Below are positions 8,516-56,038 of a stretch of 64,000 nt of DNA, piece after piece. Each line of letters opens with the position of its first letter. The stretch's first letter is position 1. This DNA comes from Neisseriales bacterium. GTDB taxonomy: Bacteria; Pseudomonadota; Gammaproteobacteria; Burkholderiales; Q3-R57-64. The position numbers and the translations under genes are program-made. Location: positions 512,671 to 576,670 of the forward strand of contig CP064990.1 of NCBI GenBank assembly GCA_016699915.1. Direction: 5' to 3'. The notes beneath the pieces were generated by a model. The model was not told where the DNA came from. It was given only the letters and a program-made list of their open reading frames with translations, and did no database searches.

Positions 8516-8965
8516 ATGCAAATTATCTTAATGGAAGACATTGCTAGGCTCGGTCGTTTAGGAGATATTGTTAAAGTCAAAGATGGCTTTGCGCGAAACT
8601 TTTTGATCCCACAAAAAAAAGCGAAGCGTGTGACCGAAGCCAATCTTGCTGAATTTAAAGCGCGACGCGATGAACTTGAGAAACAACAAGCAGCCATATT
8701 GGAAGCAGCAAAAGTTCATTTTGAAAAACTCCATGGCGCCGTATTAAGTTTGCCTCAAAAAGCTGGCGTAGAGGGTAAATTATTCGGTTCTGTTACCGCC
8801 AGCGATATTGCTAAGGCGGTGAGCACTTATGGTGTACCCGTTTTAAAAGAGGCTGTCAAACTACCTCATGGTGCTATCAAAATGCTTGGGGAATATACAG
8901 CAAAAATTACGCTGCATCATGAGGTCATCGCCGATATTACCTTGCGTGTTATAGCCGAAAGCTAG
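8516..8965 (+). CDS. rplI: 50S ribosomal protein L9
   Basis: MQIILMEDIARLGRLGDIVKVKDGFARNFLIPQKKA. Confidence 0.95.
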   Translation: MQIILMEDIARLGRLGDIVKVKDGFARNFLIPQKKAKRVTEANLAEFKARRDELEKQQAAILEAAKVHFEKLHGAVLSLPQKAGVEGKLFGSVTASDIAKAVSTYGVPVLKEAVKLPHGAIKMLGEYTAKITLHHEVIADITLRVIAES

Positions 8966-9691: not shown

Positions 9692-10934
9692 AACGTAAAG
9701 CTTCAGAAGGCTGAGTATGTGCTGCACTTAAACTCGGATAAAGTGTTGCCAAAAAGGTTAATGTTAGCGATAGCGTAAGAATCACGGCAATATCGCTTAA
9801 CTGAATTTGGCAAGGCAGATAATTTATTAAATAAATATCACCTTGGATAAGTTTGGTACCTGATATCCATTCAATCCATTGCCCAATTTTGCCAATATGC
9901 AATGCTGCCATTACTCCAAGCAATACACCTAATAGTGTACCCAATATCCCTGTTACCATACCTTGAATAATAAAGATATACATGATGCTACGTGGTGTAG
10001 CACCAAGTGTGCGCAAAATGGCAATATCTGAACGCTTATCATTTACCATCATATATAACGTTGAAACAAGCCCAAAGGCAGCAACTAGAATCATGATTGA
10101 TAAAACAATTAACATCATCCGTTTTTCGATTTGCACAGCACGAAAATAATGACTATGTTGTTCGGTCCAATCCGTTACTGATTTTAATTTTGACGACAGT
10201 GAGCTTTTCAGTAAATCGGTTTTGACTTGCGGTGCTTGCATAGGGTTAAGGAGTCGCAATCGAATGCCAGAAATGGAGCGACCCAAGTGATACAAGGTTT
10301 GCGCATCGGTTAAGTGAATAGCCACGACGGCACGGTCATATTCTACAACACGGGTACGAAAAAGAGAGACCACTTTAAATTGTTTAAAATGCGGTATCAC
10401 ACCAAATGGGGTCATGTTACCCGCTGGCACAACCACCATAACAAAATCTCCCACCTTCACTTTAAGTGTAGTGGCTAACGCTTTACTCAATGCCATGCCA
10501 AATTGACCAGATTGAAGTGCTTCAAAATTGCCTTGTGTTACTTGCCAGCCTTGATCTAATACCTTTTTTTCAAAAACCGGATCAATACCTCTGATCATGA
10601 CATGTTGTAGTGTGTCGCCTTGAGACAATAAGGCCTGGCCACTGACAAAAGGAGCAGCTGCTGCCACATTTGGTATTATTTTAAGTTGCTTGATCGTATC
10701 GGGCCAACGCGAACTTGCGTATTCACTTAGTTCAATATGTGAAGCTGTACTGAGCAGATATGACCTAATTTCTTTTTGAAACCCATTCATTACAGAAAGC
10801 ACGATAATCAGAGAAGCCACTCCTAAACAAATAGTTAGCGTCGTAATTGAAGCAATGACAGAAATGAAACCATAACGAAAGCGTGGACGCAAATAACGCA
10901 GCCCAATTTTCCACTCAAATGGTAGATTTATCAT
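9684..10934 (-). CDS. Lipoprotein-releasing system transmembrane protein (LolC/E family; single permease, LolF-like arrangement)
   Basis: 416 aa. N-terminus FEWKIGLRYLRPR, FtsX-type C-terminal TM bundle, directly coupled to lolD. Confidence 0.8.
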   Translation of the reverse strand: MINLPFEWKIGLRYLRPRFRYGFISVIASITTLTICLGVASLIIVLSVMNGFQKEIRSYLLSTASHIELSEYASSRWPDTIKQLKIIPNVAAAAPFVSGQALLSQGDTLQHVMIRGIDPVFEKKVLDQGWQVTQGNFEALQSGQFGMALSKALATTLKVKVGDFVMVVVPAGNMTPFGVIPHFKQFKVVSLFRTRVVEYDRAVVAIHLTDAQTLYHLGRSISGIRLRLLNPMQAPQVKTDLLKSSLSSKLKSVTDWTEQHSHYFRAVQIEKRMMLIVLSIMILVAAFGLVSTLYMMVNDKRSDIAILRTLGATPRSIMYIFIIQGMVTGILGTLLGVLLGVMAALHIGKIGQWIEWISGTKLIQGDIYLINYLPCQIQLSDIAVILTLSLTLTFLATLYPSLSAAHTQPSEALRYE

Positions 10935-11160
10935 GATTGCCAGTCGTAGGACGGTAGGGATTTTTTAAGTTGTGGATTCGGTCAAGTAAAAACTTGCGAA
11001 TTTGTGTTTCATCACAGCCCATGAGTAAAGCGTCCTCAAAAACATCTTGGGCGCTTTGAATCAGTTCTTCTAAGTTTTCACGCATGACCTTAATTTTCTC
11101 AATACATGATAAGGGTTGGCCGAGTGAGTCGTGCCATATAGGAAAAGTATTATCTGGCAT
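10915..11160 (-). CDS. Hypothetical 81 aa protein (no family recognised)
   Basis: ORF sits between NlpC/P60 (13 nt upstream gap) and the Lol permease (20 nt overlap), on the same strand. Predicted helical and acidic. Only positional support. Confidence 0.4.
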   Translation of the reverse strand: MPDNTFPIWHDSLGQPLSCIEKIKVMRENLEELIQSAQDVFEDALLMGCDETQIRKFLLDRIHNLKNPYRPTTGNHDKSTI

Positions 11161-11173
11161 TTATATTACCTTT

Positions 11174-11689
11174 TTATGATTCATTATTTTTGGTTTTGAC
11201 CACTCGCCTTGCACTGTTATAACGCTTCGCCCAATACGATGATTTGATATTGCTAATTTCAATATATTTACCTGTGCGCGGCGCGTGGACAAATTTATCA
11301 TCTCCTAGGTATAGCCCGACGTGCGAATTTCTACCACGCCTTGTATTAAAAAACACAAGATCACCTGGTTTTAATTCCTTTAACGTGACTAGTACGCCGA
11401 TACGCGCTTGCTCTGCTGCAGTACGGGGCATACTCAAATTCAGGGATTGCTTGAAAATATATTGAATAAATCCGCTACAATCTAAACCTCGAATTGGGTT
11501 AGAGCCACCAAATTTGTACGCGACACCAATTAGGGTCATGGCTTGCAACAAAAGCTCATCTACCGCTGTACTTTGTGCTAATTCAGATTCAGTGGCCGTA
11601 TCCGCACTCGCTGGGGAGGTAAACACTAGACCCATTACATTGCAAAAACTAGCCAAAATTATGATAAAAAAACGGCACTTTAAAATCAT
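11174..11689 (-). CDS. Secreted NlpC/P60 (C40) cell-wall peptidase
   Basis: Signal peptide ending SPASA. Catalytic Cys context GLDCSGFIQYIF and His context NSHVGLYLGDDKFVHAP. Confidence 0.85.
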   Translation of the reverse strand: MILKCRFFIIILASFCNVMGLVFTSPASADTATESELAQSTAVDELLLQAMTLIGVAYKFGGSNPIRGLDCSGFIQYIFKQSLNLSMPRTAAEQARIGVLVTLKELKPGDLVFFNTRRGRNSHVGLYLGDDKFVHAPRTGKYIEISNIKSSYWAKRYNSARRVVKTKNNES

Positions 11690-11704
11690 CAGACATACAC
11701 ACAG

Positions 11705-11736
11705 ATAAATAGGTTAGATGATAAATAGGTTAGATG
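11705..11736. repeat. Perfect tandem 2 x 16 bp repeat (ATAAATAGGTTAGATG) just upstream of the NlpC/P60 start; duplicated at 19121-19152
   Basis: Read directly: ataaataggttagatg ataaataggttagatg, followed by the degenerate atgaatag. Confidence 0.9.
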
Positions 11737-11783
11737 ATGAATAGTTCAGGGAAATTATATACCCAAAAATTCTAAAAACTGAC

Positions 11784-11802
11784 TAGCTAACTAGATTAGC
11801 TA
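11784..11802. promoter_or_regulatory. 19 bp perfect palindrome TAGCTAA-CTAGA-TTAGCTA in the divergent NlpC/P60-autotransporter control region (candidate operator); second copy 19199-19217
   Basis: Seen in sequence: 7 bp arms with a 5 bp centre. No known regulator motif assigned. Confidence 0.25.
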
Positions 11803-12112
11803 AGGATAAGCTTACGCAAAACCTCTAAAATTAAAGAAAAATAAAATCATACTGGCGGTACAATCTTTCTCATTTTGAAGCGCTCTGCTAATATATTTTA
11901 TGCCCTACCCTATAACAATGCTGTCTAATATAAACTATGTTAATCTGTTTCTAGGTGGCTTTAATACTGGATTCCATACGATCTTACAACTAGTAACGAT
12001 TAAGAATAATTAAGAAAGGAAGAAAAGATATTTTCAATATTTGAATAAAAATTATTGACAAATACGCACACTGAACAATTTTAGTGTATCGTGGCAACAT
12101 ATTTTTTCATAA

Positions 12113-14590
12113 ATGCTCAACATGCAGAAAATTTATTCTTTTGTTAAGCATCTTTTTTTGATATTTTTTGTTCTCCAATTACTCATTAATTTGGGCGGTT
12201 GCGCCTCTACTGGTGGCGGGGAGACAAAAAAAGGAAATTATACACCTCCTCCACCTACAGAAGAACCTGCACCTACAGAAGAACCTGCACCTCCTCCACC
12301 TACAGGACCTAATCAAACTGTTGATATGGATTTTGATGGTTTACAAGACAAGCTGGATCCCAAACCCAATGACACCGACAATGATGGCGCCACCAATGAT
12401 CAAGATGAAGATGATGACAATGATGGGATAGAAGATGACGATGAAAGCATCAACAAACAATATGACACGGACAATGATGGCATCAGAAATGATACGGATC
12501 CGGATGATGACAATGATGGTTTAAATGAAGCCGAAGGGGGATATCCTGATGCTCAAGGTGATCGGAAGCCCTATGACACCGACAATGATGGCAAAACCAA
12601 TGATCAAGATCCTGATGATGACGATGATGGGATAGTGGATGCTAATGATGGTGATCCGTTACATCCGCTCGAAAAAGGTCCAAAAGTGGATACGGATTTC
12701 GATGGTTTAGTAGATGACCAAGACACCATGGATAATGACACCGACAATGATGGCACCACCAATGATGAAGATGAAGATGATGACAATGATGGCTTTGAAG
12801 ACGAGGATGAGGGCGTGGATTGGTTTATCGAAGCCTTATCTGTTGAACAACAATATGCTTATACCTTTGACACGGACAATGATGGCATCAGAAATGATAC
12901 GGATCTAGATGATGATGCCGATGGTTTAAATGAAGCCCCAGGAGGTTTTCTTGATCCTCAAGGTGATCGGAAGCCCAATGACACCGACAATGATGGCGCC
13001 ACCAATGATCAAGATGAAGATGATGACAATGATGGGATAGAAGATGACGATGAAAGCATCAACAAACAATATGACACGGACAATGATGGCATCAGAAATG
13101 ATACGGATCCGGATGATGACAATGATGGTTTAAATGAAGCCGAAGGGGGATATCCTGATGCTCAAGGTGATCGGAAGCCCTATGACACCGACAATGATGG
13201 TATCAGAAATGATGAAGATGAAGATGATGACAATGATGGGATAGAAGATGACGATGAAAGCATCAACAAACAATATGACACGGACAATGATGGCATCAGA
13301 AATGATACGGATCTAGATGATGATGCCGATGGTTTAAATGAAGCCCCAGGAGGTTTTCTTGATCCTCAAGGTGATCCCAAACCCAATGACACCGACAATG
13401 ATGGCGCCACCAATGATCAAGATGAAGATGATGACAATGATGGGATAGAAGATGACGATGATGATCAACCATTAGATCCAAATAATCCTCATAAGTTAGC
13501 TTATCTTCTCGACAAGGACTTGCAATCGAATCAATCAGAAGCACCATTGACCGATACCGATGGTGATGGCCTTATGGATTCAAAAGATCCTTTACCAAAA
13601 ATTCATCAAGGGGTAGTGAAAGCAGCAACCTATTTAGCTCATCGAGAATTAACTCTCAAGGTTTTTAACTACGATGTCCAACAAGTTTTAACTCAAATAC
13701 CTGATAACAACAAACCTACTTGGGGAACTTGGATGCAAATCCAAAAATTGGGTGCAACGCAATCTATTCAAGCGACTCAAGAACAAGCGGATGCTGATAC
13801 ACAATACCATATTGTTTCAACCAATTATGGTGGCTGGATGACTCAATGGGGTATCAATACGATCCAACGCCAAGACACGACCCTCTACCATGTGGGTTTA
13901 ACAGCTGGCTTAATGCAAGCAACCCTTATTGCTGATGATCATCATCCAGCTTCGATCACCACAATAACCAAAGGTTTTGCTTTGGGTGGTTATGGTTTTT
14001 ATAAAGGTACCCAAGGTGAAATCGCTTTCAGTCTTCAAAAAGGTTGGTTTGATCATCAACAAGATGTAGCCTATCAAAGCAGTACCCTCATCAGTCATAT
14101 CAAAGCTACTTATGCTTTACACACTTGGGGCGCATTAACCTTCAGCCCAACTTTGGATATTACTTATCGCTTTAATACGGATAATCTGAATGAAACAACG
14201 ACAGAAAATCAATCCATGTATGAAGGGATATTGGGTCTTCGTGTATCCAGCGTTTGGGGTAGATTGGCTCCCTTCATAACGGTTGATTATAAATTGGGGG
14301 CATCGGATGATCTAAAGGTGACTCAAGATGATGCCAAACAAACTACTTTTACTCTCAAAACCCAACCAATACCTATTCATTTTGGCCTACAAGGTGGATT
14401 GACTTATACTCCCAATCATCAATGGAATCTACAAAGTCAATTAAGTTATCGAGACAAAACACTGAATGTAGACTGTCAATTAAACTATCAGCTTCATGAA
14501 GCGCTTAGTCTAAGTGCTAGCTTGCATGAAACCTTTTTGAAGACAGACGTTGATGTTAAAGGAGAAGTGGGATTAAGATGGGGGTGGTGA
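12113..14590 (+). CDS. Lipoprotein-type autotransporter with a thrombospondin-type-3-like Ca-binding repeat passenger (long allele, 825 aa)
   Basis: N-terminus MLNMQKIYSFVKHLFLIFFVLQLLINLGGC (h-region plus LGGC lipobox-like site), then Pro-rich linker PPPPTEEPAPTEEPAPPPPTG. About 400 aa of DxDxDGxxNDxD units follow (DTDNDGIRNDTDPDDDNDG...). The C-terminal ~285 aa has alternating beta-strand character and ends GEVGLRWGW (aromatic terminal motif of an OM beta-barrel). Confidence 0.7.
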   Translation: MLNMQKIYSFVKHLFLIFFVLQLLINLGGCASTGGGETKKGNYTPPPPTEEPAPTEEPAPPPPTGPNQTVDMDFDGLQDKLDPKPNDTDNDGATNDQDEDDDNDGIEDDDESINKQYDTDNDGIRNDTDPDDDNDGLNEAEGGYPDAQGDRKPYDTDNDGKTNDQDPDDDDDGIVDANDGDPLHPLEKGPKVDTDFDGLVDDQDTMDNDTDNDGTTNDEDEDDDNDGFEDEDEGVDWFIEALSVEQQYAYTFDTDNDGIRNDTDLDDDADGLNEAPGGFLDPQGDRKPNDTDNDGATNDQDEDDDNDGIEDDDESINKQYDTDNDGIRNDTDPDDDNDGLNEAEGGYPDAQGDRKPYDTDNDGIRNDEDEDDDNDGIEDDDESINKQYDTDNDGIRNDTDLDDDADGLNEAPGGFLDPQGDPKPNDTDNDGATNDQDEDDDNDGIEDDDDDQPLDPNNPHKLAYLLDKDLQSNQSEAPLTDTDGDGLMDSKDPLPKIHQGVVKAATYLAHRELTLKVFNYDVQQVLTQIPDNNKPTWGTWMQIQKLGATQSIQATQEQADADTQYHIVSTNYGGWMTQWGINTIQRQDTTLYHVGLTAGLMQATLIADDHHPASITTITKGFALGGYGFYKGTQGEIAFSLQKGWFDHQQDVAYQSSTLISHIKATYALHTWGALTFSPTLDITYRFNTDNLNETTTENQSMYEGILGLRVSSVWGRLAPFITVDYKLGASDDLKVTQDDAKQTTFTLKTQPIPIHFGLQGGLTYTPNHQWNLQSQLSYRDKTLNVDCQLNYQLHEALSLSASLHETFLKTDVDVKGEVGLRWGW
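12320..13590 (+). repeat. In-frame mosaic array of TSP3-like repeat codons with long perfect internal duplications
   Basis: 12365-12591 is identical to 12974-13200 (227 bp, offset 609 bp). The GATGAAGATGATGACAATGATGGGATAGAAGATGACGATGA block recurs at about 12404, 13013, 13216 and 13421. Confidence 0.9.
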
Positions 14591-14731
14591 TTATTGTTGG
14601 GGCGTGCAATAAGTTGGGTGGACTCACTAACTATTTTTGTACACATGCAACGTCGACTTAATCATAGCCTTCTCGTTGTACCTATCACTACAAACAGTGA
14701 CTTCCTTCAAAAGATAAAACTACTATTTGGA

Positions 14732-14805
14732 TGGTGCCGCTAACTAGAATCGAACTAGTGATTATTGATTACGAATCAACCGTTATACCACTTAACTATA
14801 GCGGC
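14732..14805 (-). tRNA. tRNA-Thr (anticodon CGT)
   Basis: Reverse strand GCCGCTATAGTTAAGTGGTATAACGGTTGATTCGTAATCAATAATCACTAGTTCGATTCTAGTTAGCGGCACCA; loop TTCGTAA. Confidence 0.9.
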
Positions 14806-14831
14806 TCTAAAGCACTTAATTTTATACCTCA

Positions 14832-14908
<77 letters not shown>

Positions 14909-17056: not shown

Positions 17057-17133
17057 GGCGAATTAGCTCAGTTGGTTAGAGCGACGGAATCATAATCCGC
17101 AGGTCCGGGGTTCAAGTCCCTGATTCGCCACCA
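17057..17133 (+). tRNA. tRNA-Met (anticodon CAT, elongator type; tRNA-Ile2/lysidine not excluded)
   Basis: GGCGAATTAGCTCAGTTGGTTAGAGCGACGGAATCATAATCCGCAGGTCCGGGGTTCAAGTCCCTGATTCGCCACCA. The G1-C72 pair argues against an initiator. Confidence 0.85.
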
Positions 17134-18817: not shown

Positions 18818-19105
18818 TCAATCAAAATCTGCTGCAGTACGGGGCATACTCAAATTCAGGGATTGCTTGAAAATATATTGAATAAATCCGCTACAATCTA
18901 AACCTCGAATTGGGTTAGAGCCACCAAATTTGTACGCGACACCAATTAGGGTCATGGCTTGCAACAAAAGCTCATCTACCGCTGTACTTTGTGCTAATTC
19001 AGATTCAGTGGCCGTATCCGCACTCGCTGGCGAGGTAAACACTAGACCCATTACATTGCAAAAACTAGCCAAAATTATGATAAAAAAACGGCACTTTAAA
19101 ATCAT
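18818..19105 (-). pseudogene. 5' fragment of the NlpC/P60 peptidase gene (duplicate; first 91 codons identical to 11174-11689 product, then DFD*)
   Basis: The ORF translation is identical through ...LNLSMPRTAA. It stops before the catalytic His and keeps the signal peptide and Cys motif. The duplication boundary is at 18828. Confidence 0.9.
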
Positions 19106-21007
19106 CAGACATACACACAGATAAATAGGTTAGATGATAAATAGGTTAGATGATGAATAGTTCAGGGAAATTATATACCCAAAAATTCTAAAACTGACTA
19201 GCTAACTAGATTAGCTAAGGATAAGCTTACGCAAAACCTCTAAAATTAAAGAAAAATAAAATCATACTGGCGGTATAATTTTTCTTATTTTGAAGCGTTC
19301 TGCTAATATATTTTATGTTTTATTTTATAACAATGCTGTCTAATATAAACTATGTTAATCTGTTTCTAGGTGGCTTTAATACTGGATTCCATACGATCTT
19401 ACAACTAGTAACGATTAAGAATAATTAAGAAAGGAAGAAAAGATATTTTCAATATTTGAATAAAAATTATTGACAAATACGCACACTGAACAATTTTAGT
19501 GTATCGTGGCAACATATTTTTTCATAAATGCTCAACATGCAGAAAATTTATTCTTTTGTTAAGCATCTTTTTTGATATTTTTTGTTCTCCAATTACTCAT
19601 TAATTTGGGCGGTTGCGCCTCTACTGGTGGCGGGGAGACAAAAAAAGGAAATTATACACCTCCTCCACCTACAGAAGAACCTGCACCTACAGAAGAACCT
19701 GCACCTCCTCCACCTACAGGACCTAATCAAACTGTTGATATGGATTTTGATGGTTTACAAGACAAGCTGGATCCCAAACCCAATGACACCGACAATGATG
19801 GCGCCACCAATGATCAAGATGAAGATGATGACAATGATGGGATAGAAGATGACGATGATGATCAACCATTAGATCCAAATAATCCTCATAAGTTAGCTTA
19901 TCTTCTCGACAAGGACTTGCAATCGAATCAATCAGAAGCACCATTGACCGATACCGATGGTGATGGCCTTATGGATTCAAAAGATCCTTTACCAAAAATT
20001 CATCAAGGGGTAGTGAAAGCAGCAACCTATTTAGCTCATCGAGAATTAACTCTCAAGGTTTTTAACTACGATGTCCAACAAGTTTTAACTCAAATACCTG
20101 ATAACAACAAACCTACTTGGGGAACTTGGATGCAAATCCAAAAATTGGGTGCAACGCAATCTATTCAAGCGACTCAAGAACAAGCGGATGCTGATACACA
20201 ATACCATATTGTTTCAACCAATTATGGTGGCTGGATGACTCAATGGGGTATCAATACGATCCAACGCCAAGACACGACCCTCTACCATGTGGGTTTAACA
20301 GCTGGCTTAATGCAAGCAACCCTTATTGCTGATGATCATCATCCAGCTTCGATCACCACAATAACCAAAGGTTTTGCTTTGGGTGGTTATGGTTTTTATA
20401 AAGGTACCCAAGGTGAAATCGCTTTCAGTCTTCAAAAAGGTTGGTTTGATCATCAACAAGATGTAGCCTATCAAAGCAGTACCCTCATCAGTCATATCAA
20501 AGCTACTTATGCTTTACACACTTGGGGCGCATTAACCTTCAGCCCAACTTTGGATATTACTTATCGCTTTAATACGGATAATCTGAATGAAACAACGACA
20601 GAAAATCAATCCATGTATGAAGGGATATTGGGTCTTCGTGTATCCAGCGTTTGGGGTAGATTGGCTCCCTTCATAACGGTTGATTATAAATTGGGGGCAT
20701 CGGATGATCTAAAGGTGACTCAAGATGATGCCAAACAAACTACTTTTACTCTCAAAACCCAACCAATACCTATTCATTTTGGCCTACAAGGTGGATTGAC
20801 TTATACTCCCAATCATCAATGGAATCTACAAAGTCAATTAAGTTATCGAGACAAAACACTGAATGTAGACTGTCAATTAAACTATCAGCTTCATGAAGCG
20901 CTTAGTCTAAGTGCTAGCTTGCATGAAACCTTTTTGAAGACAGACGTTGATGTTAAAGGAGAAGTGGGATTAAGATGGGGGTGGTGATTATTGTTGGGGC
21001 GTGCAAT
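18828..21007 (+). repeat. Copy B (2180 bp) of the segmental duplication (partner 11412-14610)
   Basis: See copy A. 3199 - 2180 = 1019 bp, which is the 1017 bp repeat-array indel plus two 1-nt homopolymer indels. Confidence 0.95.
19528..20987 (+). pseudogene. Second autotransporter allele (short repeat array), frameshifted at a T6 tract after codon 15; residual ORF 19572-20987 (471 aa) from TTG
   Basis: ATG 19528 reads MLNMQKIYSFVKHLF then TGA (19573-19575), because T6 (19568-19573) replaces T7 (12153-12159). Downstream protein is 100 percent identical to the long allele except for the 339 aa array difference. Confidence 0.75.
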
Positions 21008-53013: not shown

Positions 53014-55035
53014 CTACGTTCGTAACGTTGCACCAATTGTACTGACCGCATCAAGTAACTGATCCATTGCGGCATTAATTTCGTCATCAACGAGCGTTTT
53101 ATCCATAGCTTGCAACAAGACATGGTAGGCCATACTTTTCTTGCCTAGCGGGATTCCAGAACCACTATAGACATCAAATAACTCAATGGATTTGACAATA
53201 TGTGGTGCATGGCAATACAAAGCATCATATAACTGCTTGGCCGAACAAGTTTTATCAACAATCAGCGCCAAATCACGCTTGACCATGGGAAACTTAGACG
53301 TGGTACGATAACTTGCTAAACATTGTTCGTATAATACTTCGATACTGAACTCACTTAAAATGGGTGCGCTAAGTAAATGATATTGCTGGGTAAGCTGGGG
53401 CGACAATTCTCCAATAACACCAATAACTTGCCGATCAAGTAAGATATTTGCAGCACGGCCTTGATGTAAGGCTAGATGTTCGATAGGCTCAAACTCGGCC
53501 TTACGCGGTGCAAACAAGGCTTCAATGTCAGCTTTAACATCATAAAAATCAACGCGTGATTCAGCATAACCCCATTGCTCAGGATAGCGCGCTCCCCAAG
53601 CTAATAAACCTATATAAGCCTTCTGCTCAGCTTGCTGATTGATCCCGCTAAAGATATTGGCTATCTCAAAACATCGCACACGCGTATGCTGGCGATCCAT
53701 ATAATAGATCAAACGCTCCACTAAAGTTCCTAACAGGGTGGAGCGCATCATGGTCGCTTGACTATCAATAGGGTTTAGAAGTCGCACTAAAGACGTTTGA
53801 AATGAAAAATTTTTCTCTAACGCCTCTGATACAAAAGGATAGTGAATGACTTCTTGATAGCCTCTTGCGACTAATACCTGGCGTAGGAAGCGAGATTGCA
53901 CTACAGCTTTAGGTTGCAAAACCACATGCAAGGGCGCAGATGGGCTAAGCGCTGGAATATTGTCGTAACCATACAGTCTTGCAATTTCCTCAACCAAATC
54001 TTCCTCAATCATTAAATCGTTGCGAAAGCTTGGCTTGCTAACTGTAAAATGACCCGTTTGCCGTGTAAAATTAAGCATTAAACGCGCTAATATCGTAGCG
54101 ATTTTCTCATCAGGAATATGGATACCAAGTAATTGCTCAACGCGTTTTGTGTGTAGATCAATAAACTGATCGCATAAACTATCGCCTTGTTTCTGAACAA
54201 TCGATCCGACTTGTCCACCAAAACTTTCTACAATCAACTGGGTTACCCGTTCAAGCGCTTCTTGTTGCGCTGTACTATCAATACCCCTTTCGAACCGATA
54301 GGCCGCTTCAGAAACAATGCCCAAGCTACGTGCTTTATTAGCCACCACATTAGGTTGAAAATAGGCCGACTCTAAAAATAGATCTTGTGTCGTAGATGTC
54401 AGAGCACTTTCCATACTACCCATTATGCCCGCAAGAGACAAAGGCTTTTTGTCATCCGCAATGACTAACATCGTCGCATCCAATGTGATGAGTTGATCAT
54501 TTAAGCAATGTAATACCTCGCCCATTTTTGCCATTCTAACTTGTATAGCCCCATCAATTTTTTTAGCATCAAAAATATGGAGAGGCTGTCCTAGTTCTAG
54601 CATCACATAGTTGGCTATATCAACAACTGTTGAAGTAGGTACCAATCCACTAGCTACGAGGCGATCAGTGATCAACTGTGGTACGCACCCATTGATTAAA
54701 TCAATGTGTCGAATTAACCGACCAGTATAGAAACAACAGGCGCTTGGCTCATGAATATGTACAGCGGGCGCTCGGTGATACGTAATAGTAGCTGGAATAA
54801 CACAGGATGGATGCCAAGGCGTGTTCGTTAAAGCGGATACTTCCCTTGCTAAACCCTTAATAGATAGGCAATCTCCACGATTAGGCGTAATTTTAAAGAG
54901 AAAAATATGATCTGTCTTACCACTTGGATATATAGCCTCAACCTCAATACCCGACACGGTTAATAATTCTGCAAGATCTTCAATTGATAGCGGAGGATCT
55001 ACCCAATGGCGTAACCAGCTTTCTAGAATTTGCAT
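53014..55035 (-). CDS. pheT: Phenylalanine--tRNA ligase beta subunit (673 aa, lacks the N-terminal OB-fold tRNA-binding insert)
   Basis: MQILESWLRHWVDPPLSIEDLAELLTVSGIEVEAIYPSGKTDHIFLFKITPNRGDCLSIKGLAREV aligns to E. coli PheT residues 1-40 and then directly to ~150 onward (TIEISVTPNRADCLG). Confidence 0.9.
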   Translation of the reverse strand: MQILESWLRHWVDPPLSIEDLAELLTVSGIEVEAIYPSGKTDHIFLFKITPNRGDCLSIKGLAREVSALTNTPWHPSCVIPATITYHRAPAVHIHEPSACCFYTGRLIRHIDLINGCVPQLITDRLVASGLVPTSTVVDIANYVMLELGQPLHIFDAKKIDGAIQVRMAKMGEVLHCLNDQLITLDATMLVIADDKKPLSLAGIMGSMESALTSTTQDLFLESAYFQPNVVANKARSLGIVSEAAYRFERGIDSTAQQEALERVTQLIVESFGGQVGSIVQKQGDSLCDQFIDLHTKRVEQLLGIHIPDEKIATILARLMLNFTRQTGHFTVSKPSFRNDLMIEEDLVEEIARLYGYDNIPALSPSAPLHVVLQPKAVVQSRFLRQVLVARGYQEVIHYPFVSEALEKNFSFQTSLVRLLNPIDSQATMMRSTLLGTLVERLIYYMDRQHTRVRCFEIANIFSGINQQAEQKAYIGLLAWGARYPEQWGYAESRVDFYDVKADIEALFAPRKAEFEPIEHLALHQGRAANILLDRQVIGVIGELSPQLTQQYHLLSAPILSEFSIEVLYEQCLASYRTTSKFPMVKRDLALIVDKTCSAKQLYDALYCHAPHIVKSIELFDVYSGSGIPLGKKSMAYHVLLQAMDKTLVDDEINAAMDQLLDAVSTIGATLRT

Positions 55036-55048
55036 CGCAGTTTATGGC

Positions 55049-56038
55049 TCAACAGAATTGTGCGAGAAAATCAAGATCATTTTCAAAAAACAAACGTAGA
55101 TCATTCACGCCATAGCGTAGCATAGCAAACCGGTCAAGACCTATACCAAAAGCCCAACCTTGATATTGAGTAGGATCAATCCCAACATTTTGTAATACGT
55201 TAGGATGCACCATACCACAGCCAGCAACCTCTAACCAACCCTTTTCGCCCCATACATCAATTTCAGCAGAGGGTTCTGTAAAAGCAAAAAAGGAAGCACG
55301 AAAACGCACCTTAAGGTCTTCACGATCAAAAAAGCGCCGCAAAAAATCAATCATGATCGCTTTGAGTTCCGCAAAGTTTGCGCATTGATCAATCCATAAT
55401 CCCTCTACTTGATGAAACATCGGGGAATGTGTTGCATCAGAATCCACGCGATAGACCCGTCCTGGTGCAATAATCTTAATCGGCGGTTGATGTGAGCGCA
55501 TGTAGCGCACTTGCACAGATGAGGTATGGGTACGCAACAATTTTTCATCGGTAATATAAAATGTGTCATGCATAGCACGTGCTGGATGATTAGGTGGGAT
55601 ATTTAATGCTTGAAAATTATGAAAATCATCTTCAATTTCAGGACCATCAGCCACTATAAATCCAACCGATGAAAATAAATCAATAATACGCTCCAAGGTA
55701 AGCGTAATGGGATGCAATCCTCCACTTGCTTGACCGCGACCCGGCAACGTCACATCCCATGGTTCTGTTAACGATTGAGATTGCACAAGTTGCATCGTCA
55801 ATTGATTTTTACAGGAGTGGTAACTTGCTAAGAACTGTTGTTTAGCAAGATTGACCGCAGTACCATAAGCTTGTCGATCTGAGATAGGCAACTGCCCAAT
55901 ACGTTTTAGCGCTGTGGTAAGCAGGCCGTTCTTGCCCAAATAATTGACTTTGACTTGTTCAAGTGCATACAAGTTACTCGCTTCCTGTAGCGCAGAAATA
56001 CCGGACAAAATAATCTCATCCATCTGCTGCATAGTCAC
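55049..56038 (-). CDS. pheS: Phenylalanine--tRNA ligase alpha subunit
   Basis: HPARAMHDTFY, class II motifs FRASFFAFTEPSAEIDV and GWAFGIGLDRFAMLRYG. GTG start 56038 (ATG 56032 is an alternative). Confidence 0.95.
   Translation of the reverse strand: MTMQQMDEIILSGISALQEASNLYALEQVKVNYLGKNGLLTTALKRIGQLPISDRQAYGTAVNLAKQQFLASYHSCKNQLTMQLVQSQSLTEPWDVTLPGRGQASGGLHPITLTLERIIDLFSSVGFIVADGPEIEDDFHNFQALNIPPNHPARAMHDTFYITDEKLLRTHTSSVQVRYMRSHQPPIKIIAPGRVYRVDSDATHSPMFHQVEGLWIDQCANFAELKAIMIDFLRRFFDREDLKVRFRASFFAFTEPSAEIDVWGEKGWLEVAGCGMVHPNVLQNVGIDPTQYQGWAFGIGLDRFAMLRYGVNDLRLFFENDLDFLAQFC

Follow-up and report, generated by a model that had tools for sequence, protein, structure and literature searches.

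A putative, highly divergent autotransporter-like outer membrane protein with 23 predicted calcium loops, and its shortened paralogue, in a Neisseriales bacterium

Here we describe a gene for an 825 amino acid protein in a 64,000-nucleotide stretch of the genome of a Neisseriales bacterium (GenBank assembly GCA_016699915.1, contig CP064990.1, positions 512,671 to 576,670 of the forward strand), together with a shortened duplicate of that gene. The whole stretch is called the window below, and coordinates are those of the window unless a contig is named. The open reading frame (ORF) at 12113-14590 (+) appears in the list of window ORFs as an initial annotation, made from the sequence alone, had given it. 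Its product is made up of a signal peptide, a chain of aspartate-rich loops predicted to bind Ca2+ and a C-terminal domain rich in beta strands, a layout that we read as that of a probable, very divergent relative of the classical (type Va) autotransporters.

The gene and the layout of its product

The features of the full-length gene are as follows.

12113..14590, + strand: full-length gene, 825 amino acids, comprising signal peptide, Pro-rich spacer, Ca-loop array, linker helix and predicted C-terminal beta-barrel (ORF list and domain map)
12113..12202, + strand: signal peptide MLNMQKIYSFVKHLFLIFFVLQLLINLGG, residues 1-29, then Cys30; lipobox-like L-G-G-C with Ala at +2 (read from the sequence)
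12153..12159, + strand: T7 homopolymer within the signal-peptide codons, T6 in the second copy (alignment of both copies and tract scan)
12242..12307, + strand: Pro-rich spacer TPPPPTEEPAPTEEPAPPPPTG, residues 44-65, encoded by an 18 bp tandem repeat in 2.5 copies
12323..13477, + strand: D-rich array, residues 71-455, with 22 DxDxDG loops in modules of 31, 37 and 44 amino acids and a 204 bp (68 amino acid) super-repeat
13553..13600, + strand: last Ca loop DTDGDGLMDSKDPLPK, residues 481-496, the 23rd loop, at the junction of passenger and linker (homologue alignment)
13601..13705, + strand: predicted alpha-helical linker IHQGVVKAATYLAHRELTLKVFNYDVQQVLTQIPD, residues 497-531 (helix in an AlphaFold2 (AF2) model of low confidence; conserved in homologues)
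13706..14587, + strand: C-terminal beta-strand domain ending VGLRWGW, read as a divergent autotransporter-type outer membrane barrel

The four-part anatomy proposed by the initial annotation is real, although its proportions needed adjustment: the C-terminal domain together with the linker covers ~330 amino acids (497-825) rather than ~285, and the D-rich stretch put at about 400 amino acids measures about 385 (residues 71-455), with a non-repeat stretch (residues 456-480) between it and the last loop. The passenger (residues 31-496) is 30% Asp and carries a net charge of -145, and the only cysteines of the protein, at positions 30 and 788, both lie outside the repeats. As had been suggested, no enzymatic domain and no beta-helix could be recognised in the passenger; nor could a head domain or an autochaperone segment.

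The array is set apart from generic low-complexity sequence by its loop count, its regular spacing and its module types. D.[DN].[DN]G loops number 23 in the protein as against 2.2 +/- 1.5 (maximum 8) in 2000 composition-preserving shuffles, 19 of the 23 fit the full 12-residue Ca-loop pattern (DxDxDGxxDxxD type), and spacings of 13 residues alternate with spacings of 18-24 residues. Modules of 31 amino acids (DTDNDGATNDQDEDDDNDGIEDDDESINKQY), 37 amino acids (DTDNDGIRNDTDPDDDNDGLNEAEGGYPDAQGDRKPY) and 44 amino acids (containing GVDWFIEALSVEQQYAYTF) can be told apart, and the 204 bp super-repeat is evident at the DNA level. We considered and rejected the possibility that the repeats are meaningless low complexity, as module types including GxxWF...Y[ST][FL] are kept in homologues that are 35-38% identical in the barrel.

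The repeats had initially been assigned to the thrombospondin type 3 (TSP3) family. Tandem DxDxDG loops are indeed present, but neither Pfam TSP_3 nor TSP3_bac reached its gathering threshold: single modules match TSP3_bac (PF18884) at up to 16.8 bits or TSP_3 (PF02412) at up to 15.8 bits, with scores of 7-17 bits overall where the cut-off is 25. They gave in addition one stray EF-hand match and one stray match to a domain of unknown function, both below the 25-bit cut-off. The one longer match to a TSP3 model, of 18 residues, fell on the junction fragment of a homologue from the metagenomic contig L001. A Pfam and NCBIfam scan of the full array gave no match, possibly through composition filtering, and sequence searches of the PDB with the array and with a 91 amino acid fragment of it found nothing relevant. 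Because the matches are sub-threshold and confined to the loop core, we refer to TSP3-like DxDxDG Ca2+ loops rather than to proven members of the TSP3 family.

The likeness to thrombospondin type 3 nevertheless extends to the tandem DxDxDGxx[DN]xxD loops themselves, to TSP_3 and TSP3_bac being the main Pfam families matched by single modules, and to module size (31-37 amino acids, compared with 36 positions in the Pfam TSP_3 model). The rhythm of 13 residues followed by a longer loop is presumably comparable to that of the N-type and C-type motifs of the eukaryotic repeats. Ca2+ binding by the array is predicted from these loop sequences. With its 23 loops the array greatly exceeds in length the TSP3 linkers known from OmpA-like and TraB proteins of bacteria, and it sits N-terminal to the barrel, where those linkers join a barrel to an OmpA domain. 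It also lacks intra-repeat cysteines, whereas Dai et al. 2017 (as cited in PMC12045341) report, by their title, that Ca2+ binding by a bacterial OmpA TSP3 depends on an intra-repeat disulfide.

The C-terminal domain, its family and the signal peptide

The C-terminal domain defines a lineage of predicted barrels so divergent and so rare that curated models miss the window protein. An exhaustive HMMER search with this domain recovered 6 cluster representatives among 1.84 billion (E 2.5e-58 to 2.9e-05), and a profile search of 5.8 billion proteins returned 4 family members, all on ~1 kb contigs, one of which had been named 'outer membrane autotransporter protein' by the Joint Genome Institute (JGI). 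No relative was found by a pattern scan of 185,579 GTDB species genomes with the family alignment. Word-indexed protein searches with the short paralogue and with the C-terminal domain likewise yielded no homologues, acidic words having probably saturated the candidate list for the short paralogue. Exact-sequence look-ups returned no entry for the 825 amino acid protein or for the window's dcd product.

Remote homology of this family to autotransporter barrels can be traced through its members. Two homologues, P0003 and P0002, match the NCBIfam model TIGR01414 (autotrans_barl) above its curated cut-off of 16 bits, the former at 26.0 bits (E 4.3e-06, model positions 179-417 of 432) and the latter at 17.9 bits (E 0.0012), and these same proteins match the window C-terminal domain at E 6.9e-31 and E 1.4e-40, respectively. 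A family profile (A5) was compared by hhalign with a profile (A6) of the last 340 amino acids of the E. coli K-12 proteins Ag43 (flu), YfaL, YcgV and YpjA, which gave a score of 37.2 (P 3.3e-4) over 198 colinear columns. Reversed alignments scored 13.9-17.4, 30 block-permuted alignments no more than 24.8 and a profile of the porins OmpF, OmpC and PhoE 18.3, whereas leave-one-out autotransporter profiles scored 27.7-30.1 with broadly overlapping, colinear registers. Comparisons with single sequences were uninformative, autotransporter and non-autotransporter barrels alike scoring 14-21.

Structure prediction points in the same direction at low resolution. An AF2 model from a 4-sequence alignment (predicted local distance difference test (pLDDT) 46, predicted template modelling score 0.41) consists of an N-terminal helix (model residues 17-30) followed by long antiparallel strands; a single-sequence model (pLDDT 30) was unusable. 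The helix is predicted at IHQGVVKAATYLAH, where pLDDT is below 50, and the stretch is conserved in homologues. The best Foldseek match of the model in the PDB is the beta domain of the BrkA autotransporter (3qq2, E 1e-4), and EspP, AaaA and EstA are also among the matches. The C-terminus, VGLRWGW, has alternate hydrophobic residues and a terminal aromatic residue, and homologues end in NWTW, IWHW, IWNW or RWGW. Taken together, the homologues that pass TIGR01414, the profile match, the model and the C-terminal signal argue, with moderate confidence, that the domain is a highly divergent barrel of autotransporter type. The autotransporter barrel put forward by the initial annotation is thus supported by way of the homologues and the family profile, but not by a direct model match of the window protein.

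The combination of repeats and barrel appears to be a trait of the family, as two metagenomic homologues share the arrangement at 35-38% identity. Among JGI metagenome contigs one full-length homologue was found, on contig L083; it is 35% identical in the barrel and carries at least 13 DTDNDG-type modules, including the GWF...YSL type, as well as the junction loop and a PEIHKDIVKVATY linker. The homologue on contig L001 has the same order of repeats, junction loop, linker and barrel. The junction loop DTDGDGLMDSKDPLPK itself is kept on both contigs and matches TSP_3 at E 0.037. The repeats on L083 are 60-85% identical in DNA, whereas the window array contains perfect duplications of 89-227 bp, which indicates recent remodelling of the array in the window. 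The G+C content of the homologue contigs (38-41%) is like that of the window.

Contig L083 (73 kb) stops 73 bp past the stop codon of the homologue (L083:11071-11144), and the contigs of the other family members, 1.1-1.3 kb long, end within or close to the repeats. These organisms, too, may have a duplicated locus or one that resists assembly. The reading frames of both homologues are interrupted. On L083 there is a frameshift at an A8 tract (L083:8605-8612) just past the signal peptide and a second at ~8925-8945, a site without a long homopolymer, while in the L001 homologue the frame shifts at a C6 tract (L001:685-690) before the junction loop. Phase variation, pseudogenisation or assembly error could each account for these frameshifts.

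The signal peptide of the window protein has a charged n-region (K6, K12) and an h-region, and ends in L-G-G-C, which had led to its description as that of a lipoprotein. The motif stands, but the G at -2 falls outside the lipobox consensus [LVI][ASTVI][GAS]C quoted in PMC8151025. Moreover, the L083 homologue, the only one with an N-terminus, begins with a signal peptide of signal peptidase I type lacking Cys (MTKIAFYKRHILKLLILASLTGYAFA/ESS), although joining this N-terminus to the gene requires repair of the A8 frameshift. The possible lipobox is therefore not conserved; the window protein itself may be processed as a lipoprotein. The pairing of lipidation with an autotransporter is in any case already described: the classical autotransporters NalP, SphB1, AlpA and CapA are lipidated (PMC9289746, PMC8151025). 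With NalP and SphB1 the protein would share a possible lipobox, albeit one that is off consensus and not family-wide.

A segmental duplication and a shortened second copy

The gene lies within a segmental duplication of 3.2 kb, the second gene copy being 7.4 kb from the first. The features concerned are listed here.

11412..14610: segmental duplication copy 1, comprising the 5' part of nlpC/P60, the intergenic region and the full gene (window self-BLAST)
18828..21007: segmental duplication copy 2, with the array 1017 bp shorter (window self-BLAST)
19528..20987, + strand: short paralogue; TTG ORF 19572-20987, 471 amino acids, 4 Ca loops, identical barrel
18818..19105, - strand: truncated nlpC/P60 duplicate, 95 amino acids (the intact gene at 11174-11689 encodes 171 amino acids)
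12356..12444, + strand: left 89 bp perfect repeat bounding the 1017 bp segment that is missing from copy 2
13373..13461, + strand: right 89 bp perfect repeat

By self-BLAST, 11412-12444 matches 18828-19858 at 98.7% and 13367-14610 matches 19763-21007 at 99.8%. The boundaries (11412/18828 and 14610/21007) are sharp, with no obvious microhomology and no mobile-element gene nearby. The intact nlpC/P60 gene matches Pfam NLPC_P60 at E 2e-31. Two tRNA genes, dcd, a LOG-family gene, a ferritin gene, tRNA-Met and an amino-acid permease gene lie between the copies. Copy 2 has unique flanks, the amino-acid permease gene and a short-chain dehydrogenase/reductase (SDR) gene, and no third copy is present in the window.

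The initial annotation treated the shorter gene as a second allele; it is instead a paralogue, carried on a segmental duplication. The coding DNA of copy 2 is 100% identical to that of copy 1 over 12154-12444 and 13373-14590, and the two matches overlap by 89 nucleotides in copy 2. This overlap indicates that recombination within the 89 bp perfect repeat either removed 1017 bp from copy 2 or added them to copy 1. That the two arrays differ by exactly 1017 bp had been correctly noted, as had the perfect 227 bp duplication 12365-12591 = 12974-13200, and the proposal that homologous recombination made the difference in array length is borne out by the self-BLAST and by the location of the copy 2 junction inside the 89 bp repeat. 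The 21-mer TGGGATAGAAGATGACGATGA occurs at 12424, 13033, 13237, 13441 and 19838.

What the initial annotation missed is that copy 2 is probably silent, a decaying gene or pseudogene rather than a functional short allele. From its ATG (19528) the frame reads MLNMQKIYSFVKHLF and stops after 15 codons, the break falling at a T6 tract (19568-19573) where copy 1 has T7. The TTG ORF (19572) would begin with a signal peptide that lacks a charged n-region. A frameshift within the signal-peptide codons, caused by T6 in place of T7, would thus probably silence the copy.

The changes private to copy 2 comprise 10 clustered C-to-T substitutions, one G-to-C substitution and two indels; a homopolymer indel, A5 to A4 at 11774, is among the differences between the copies. 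The substitution cluster lies in 50 bp of intergenic DNA (11861-11910 versus 19276-19325), all ten positions being C in copy 1 and T in copy 2 on the + strand. Some 10 of the 16 cytosines are changed with no G-to-A change, and one change makes TACAAT into TATAAT. The cluster stands out from the remainder of the 3.2 kb duplicate, which is nearly identical between the copies, and this strand-specific pattern resembles the outcome of deamination or of a short conversion event.

Some phase-variable surface proteins, neisserial autotransporters among them, are switched by slippage at a homopolymer. Here too a homopolymer in the 5' coding region differs between copies and breaks the frame, although the tracts are just 6-8 nucleotides long. 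The locus might then be a contingency locus of an exposed surface protein, with slippage switching expression on and off, recombination changing array length, and copy 2 serving as a phase-OFF or reserve copy, an idea that would add to the autotransporter-like reading rather than compete with it and that we consider possible but doubtful. The T7/T6 difference is among very few between otherwise identical coding copies, the homologues are frameshifted at the A8 tract on L083 and the C6 tract on L001, and the large window genes that were scanned (Mfd, SecA, DnaE and others) are intact, which makes general assembly error unlikely. Yet tracts of 6-8 nucleotides are short for efficient slipped-strand switching, the second L083 frameshift, away from any long homopolymer, is more like decay or sequencing error, and the A5-to-A4 difference at 11774 is likewise a homopolymer indel of the kind that long-read error yields. 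Variation in length by recombination is recorded in the structure of the two arrays; ON/OFF variation is no more than suggested.

The wider window is core chromosome, with a G+C content of ~40% and with lolCD-type genes, mfd, secA, dnaE, pheT, thrS, rne and transfer-messenger RNA (tmRNA) among its genes. LolC and LolD are 45-56% identical to Burkholderiales loci, the dcd product (dCTP deaminase) is at most 85% identical to its betaproteobacterial counterparts, and the tmRNA tag reads ANDENYALAA. Genes for tRNA-Thr(CGT) and tRNA-Pro(CGG) lie at 14732-14908 (-), ~120 bp beyond the point where duplication copy 1 ends, and tRNA-Met lies at 17057-17133 (+), within the 4.2 kb segment that separates the copies. 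An ORF of 81 amino acids at 10915-11160 (-) has no Pfam match; its homologues, 45-53% identical, directly follow dcd in Gallionellaceae-type and other proteobacterial loci, whereas here it lies beside lolC. The PheT homologue at 53014-55035 (-) is just 673 amino acids long, with the B3_4 domain starting from residue 99, and seems to be without what we take to be the usual N-terminal tRNA-binding region of roughly 100 amino acids. An ORF at 55049-56038, presumably pheS, lies directly upstream, and the short PheT does not therefore look like the product of a frameshift.

Proposed surface display, alternative explanations and significance

We propose that the gene product is a very divergent outer membrane protein, akin to the classical (type Va) autotransporters, that displays a chain of 23 DxDxDG Ca2+ loops, and we give this reading a probability of about 0.6. 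The Sec signal peptide would direct the protein to the periplasm, possibly with processing as a lipoprotein, and the C-terminal domain would insert into the outer membrane as a beta-barrel by means of its aromatic C-terminal signal. The helical linker would then thread the barrel pore, and the unfolded, highly acidic N-terminal passenger would be translocated and displayed on the cell surface. In the absence of Ca2+ the array would be disordered and highly charged, and outside the cell it would be expected to compact into a Ca2+-loaded rod, to give a cation-binding or adhesive surface layer. Unequal exchange by homologous recombination among the near-identical 204 bp super-repeats would determine the length of the array, and a recent 3.2 kb segmental duplication would have produced copy 2, which subsequently would have lost 1017 bp of array and one T. 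As there is no head domain, any function would have to lie in the array itself, with cation binding, Ca2+-bridged adhesion or biofilm formation, and surface shielding as candidates.

The order of parts is that of classical type Va autotransporters, namely signal peptide, passenger, predicted helical linker and a C-terminal beta domain with an aromatic terminus, and both the TIGR01414-passing homologues and the alignment of the family profile with E. coli barrels fit this class. The protein departs from the class in a barrel so divergent that curated models miss it, and in a passenger without beta-helix, protease or lipase domain, or recognisable autochaperone. What carries autotransporter passengers across the outer membrane, a step that uses no ATP, is a matter of continuing debate, with vectorial folding of a beta-helix on one side and electrostatic or other forces on the other. 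The closest parallel is an engineered one: in chimeras of EspP with the repeats-in-toxin (RTX) segment of the CyaA receptor domain, an autotransporter beta domain carries a passenger of acidic Ca2+-binding repeats that is disordered when Ca2+ is absent. As PMC4174580 summarises the work of Kang'ethe and Bernstein 2013, this RTX segment is secreted efficiently by EspP, with acidic residues critical and acidic charge needed for secretion. Those chimeras are artificial and built of RTX nonapeptide repeats, whereas the protein described here is natural, is built of DxDxDG loops, and would be secreted only if our reading holds. A bolder version of that reading, in which the whole passenger is a disordered polyanion that folds on Ca2+ and is exported by its charge together with Ca2+-driven compaction, from a contingency locus whose long and short paralogues are ON and OFF, strikes us as rather unlikely at present.

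Several results weigh against the autotransporter-like reading. Pfam Autotransporter (PF03797), TIGR01414 and other Pfam and NCBIfam barrel models gave no match to the full protein or to C-terminal fragments at E up to 10, and neither PF02412 nor PF03797, the two models that the initial annotation had named for its repeats and barrel, matched the window protein at threshold level. PDB sequence searches with the C-terminal domain and with the family profile returned no autotransporter and nothing else relevant. The hhalign probability of the A5/A6 comparison was just 38%, and the window sequence by itself scored only 21.6 (P 0.046) against the autotransporter profile. The AF2 model, of low confidence, shows a beta-strand-rich domain with an N-terminal helix but does not resolve the 12-stranded barrel initially envisaged, having about 14-15 strand segments instead of a clean 12, and its Foldseek list mixes porins, TonB-dependent receptors and other outer membrane barrels at template modelling scores of 0.3-0.45. 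All TSP3-model matches in the array fall short of the curated cut-off and span just the loop core of 9-14 residues. Finally, the bacterial TSP3 repeats adjoining barrels that are described in PMC12045341 are periplasmic linkers, in TraB and OmpA-like proteins.

The main rival takes its lead from those linkers and makes the C-terminal domain just an outer membrane anchor, with the array in the periplasm as an elastic or cation-buffering tether. Sorting of lipoproteins by the Lol system follows the residue at +2 after the lipidated Cys, and lipidation of the protein at Cys30, which is followed by Ala at +2, would direct it to the outer membrane. The described TSP3 repeats that join an outer membrane barrel to a periplasmic OmpA domain (TraB, PMC12045341; Dai et al. 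2017 cited therein) are a precedent for such a tether, and both the missing direct autotransporter model match and the strand count are compatible with it. On the other hand, P0003 and P0002 pass TIGR01414, the autotransporter profile match is specific relative to the porin and permuted controls, and a conserved helix-forming linker directly precedes the barrel, all of which argue against a mere anchor. The protein also has no peptidoglycan-binding domain, and without a lipobox in the L083 homologue a two-point attachment to the outer membrane is not conserved. On balance we regard a periplasmic array as improbable. That copy 2 is an assembly artefact, a misplaced alternative haplotype or collapsed repeat, is highly improbable and was rejected: although its coding DNA is 100% identical outside the deletion and repeat arrays are hard to assemble, it has unique flanks on both sides with sharp boundaries at 18828 and 21007, and it carries a truncated nlpC fragment along with private substitutions and indels.

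On the autotransporter-like reading, each component is of a known kind, from the type Va barrel and the DxDxDG/TSP3-like loops to the possible lipobox and the recombination of repeats. What is unusual is their combination, a passenger of Ca loops only, and the extreme rarity and divergence of the barrel lineage. The view that the architecture was undescribed holds up, as we found no autotransporter with a TSP3-type passenger by searching the full-text literature (a search that did not extend to InterPro architectures), and the sequence space around the protein is nearly empty. Should it prove to be a genuine autotransporter, the protein would be a natural example of the principle of an acidic, Ca-binding, disordered passenger, with a charge of -145, 23 loops and no beta-helix. 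Its two natural length variants, of 23 and 4 loops on an identical barrel, would provide a ready-made test system, and the known settings of bacterial TSP3-like Ca2+ loops, so far periplasmic OmpA linkers, would come to include a probable surface polymer.

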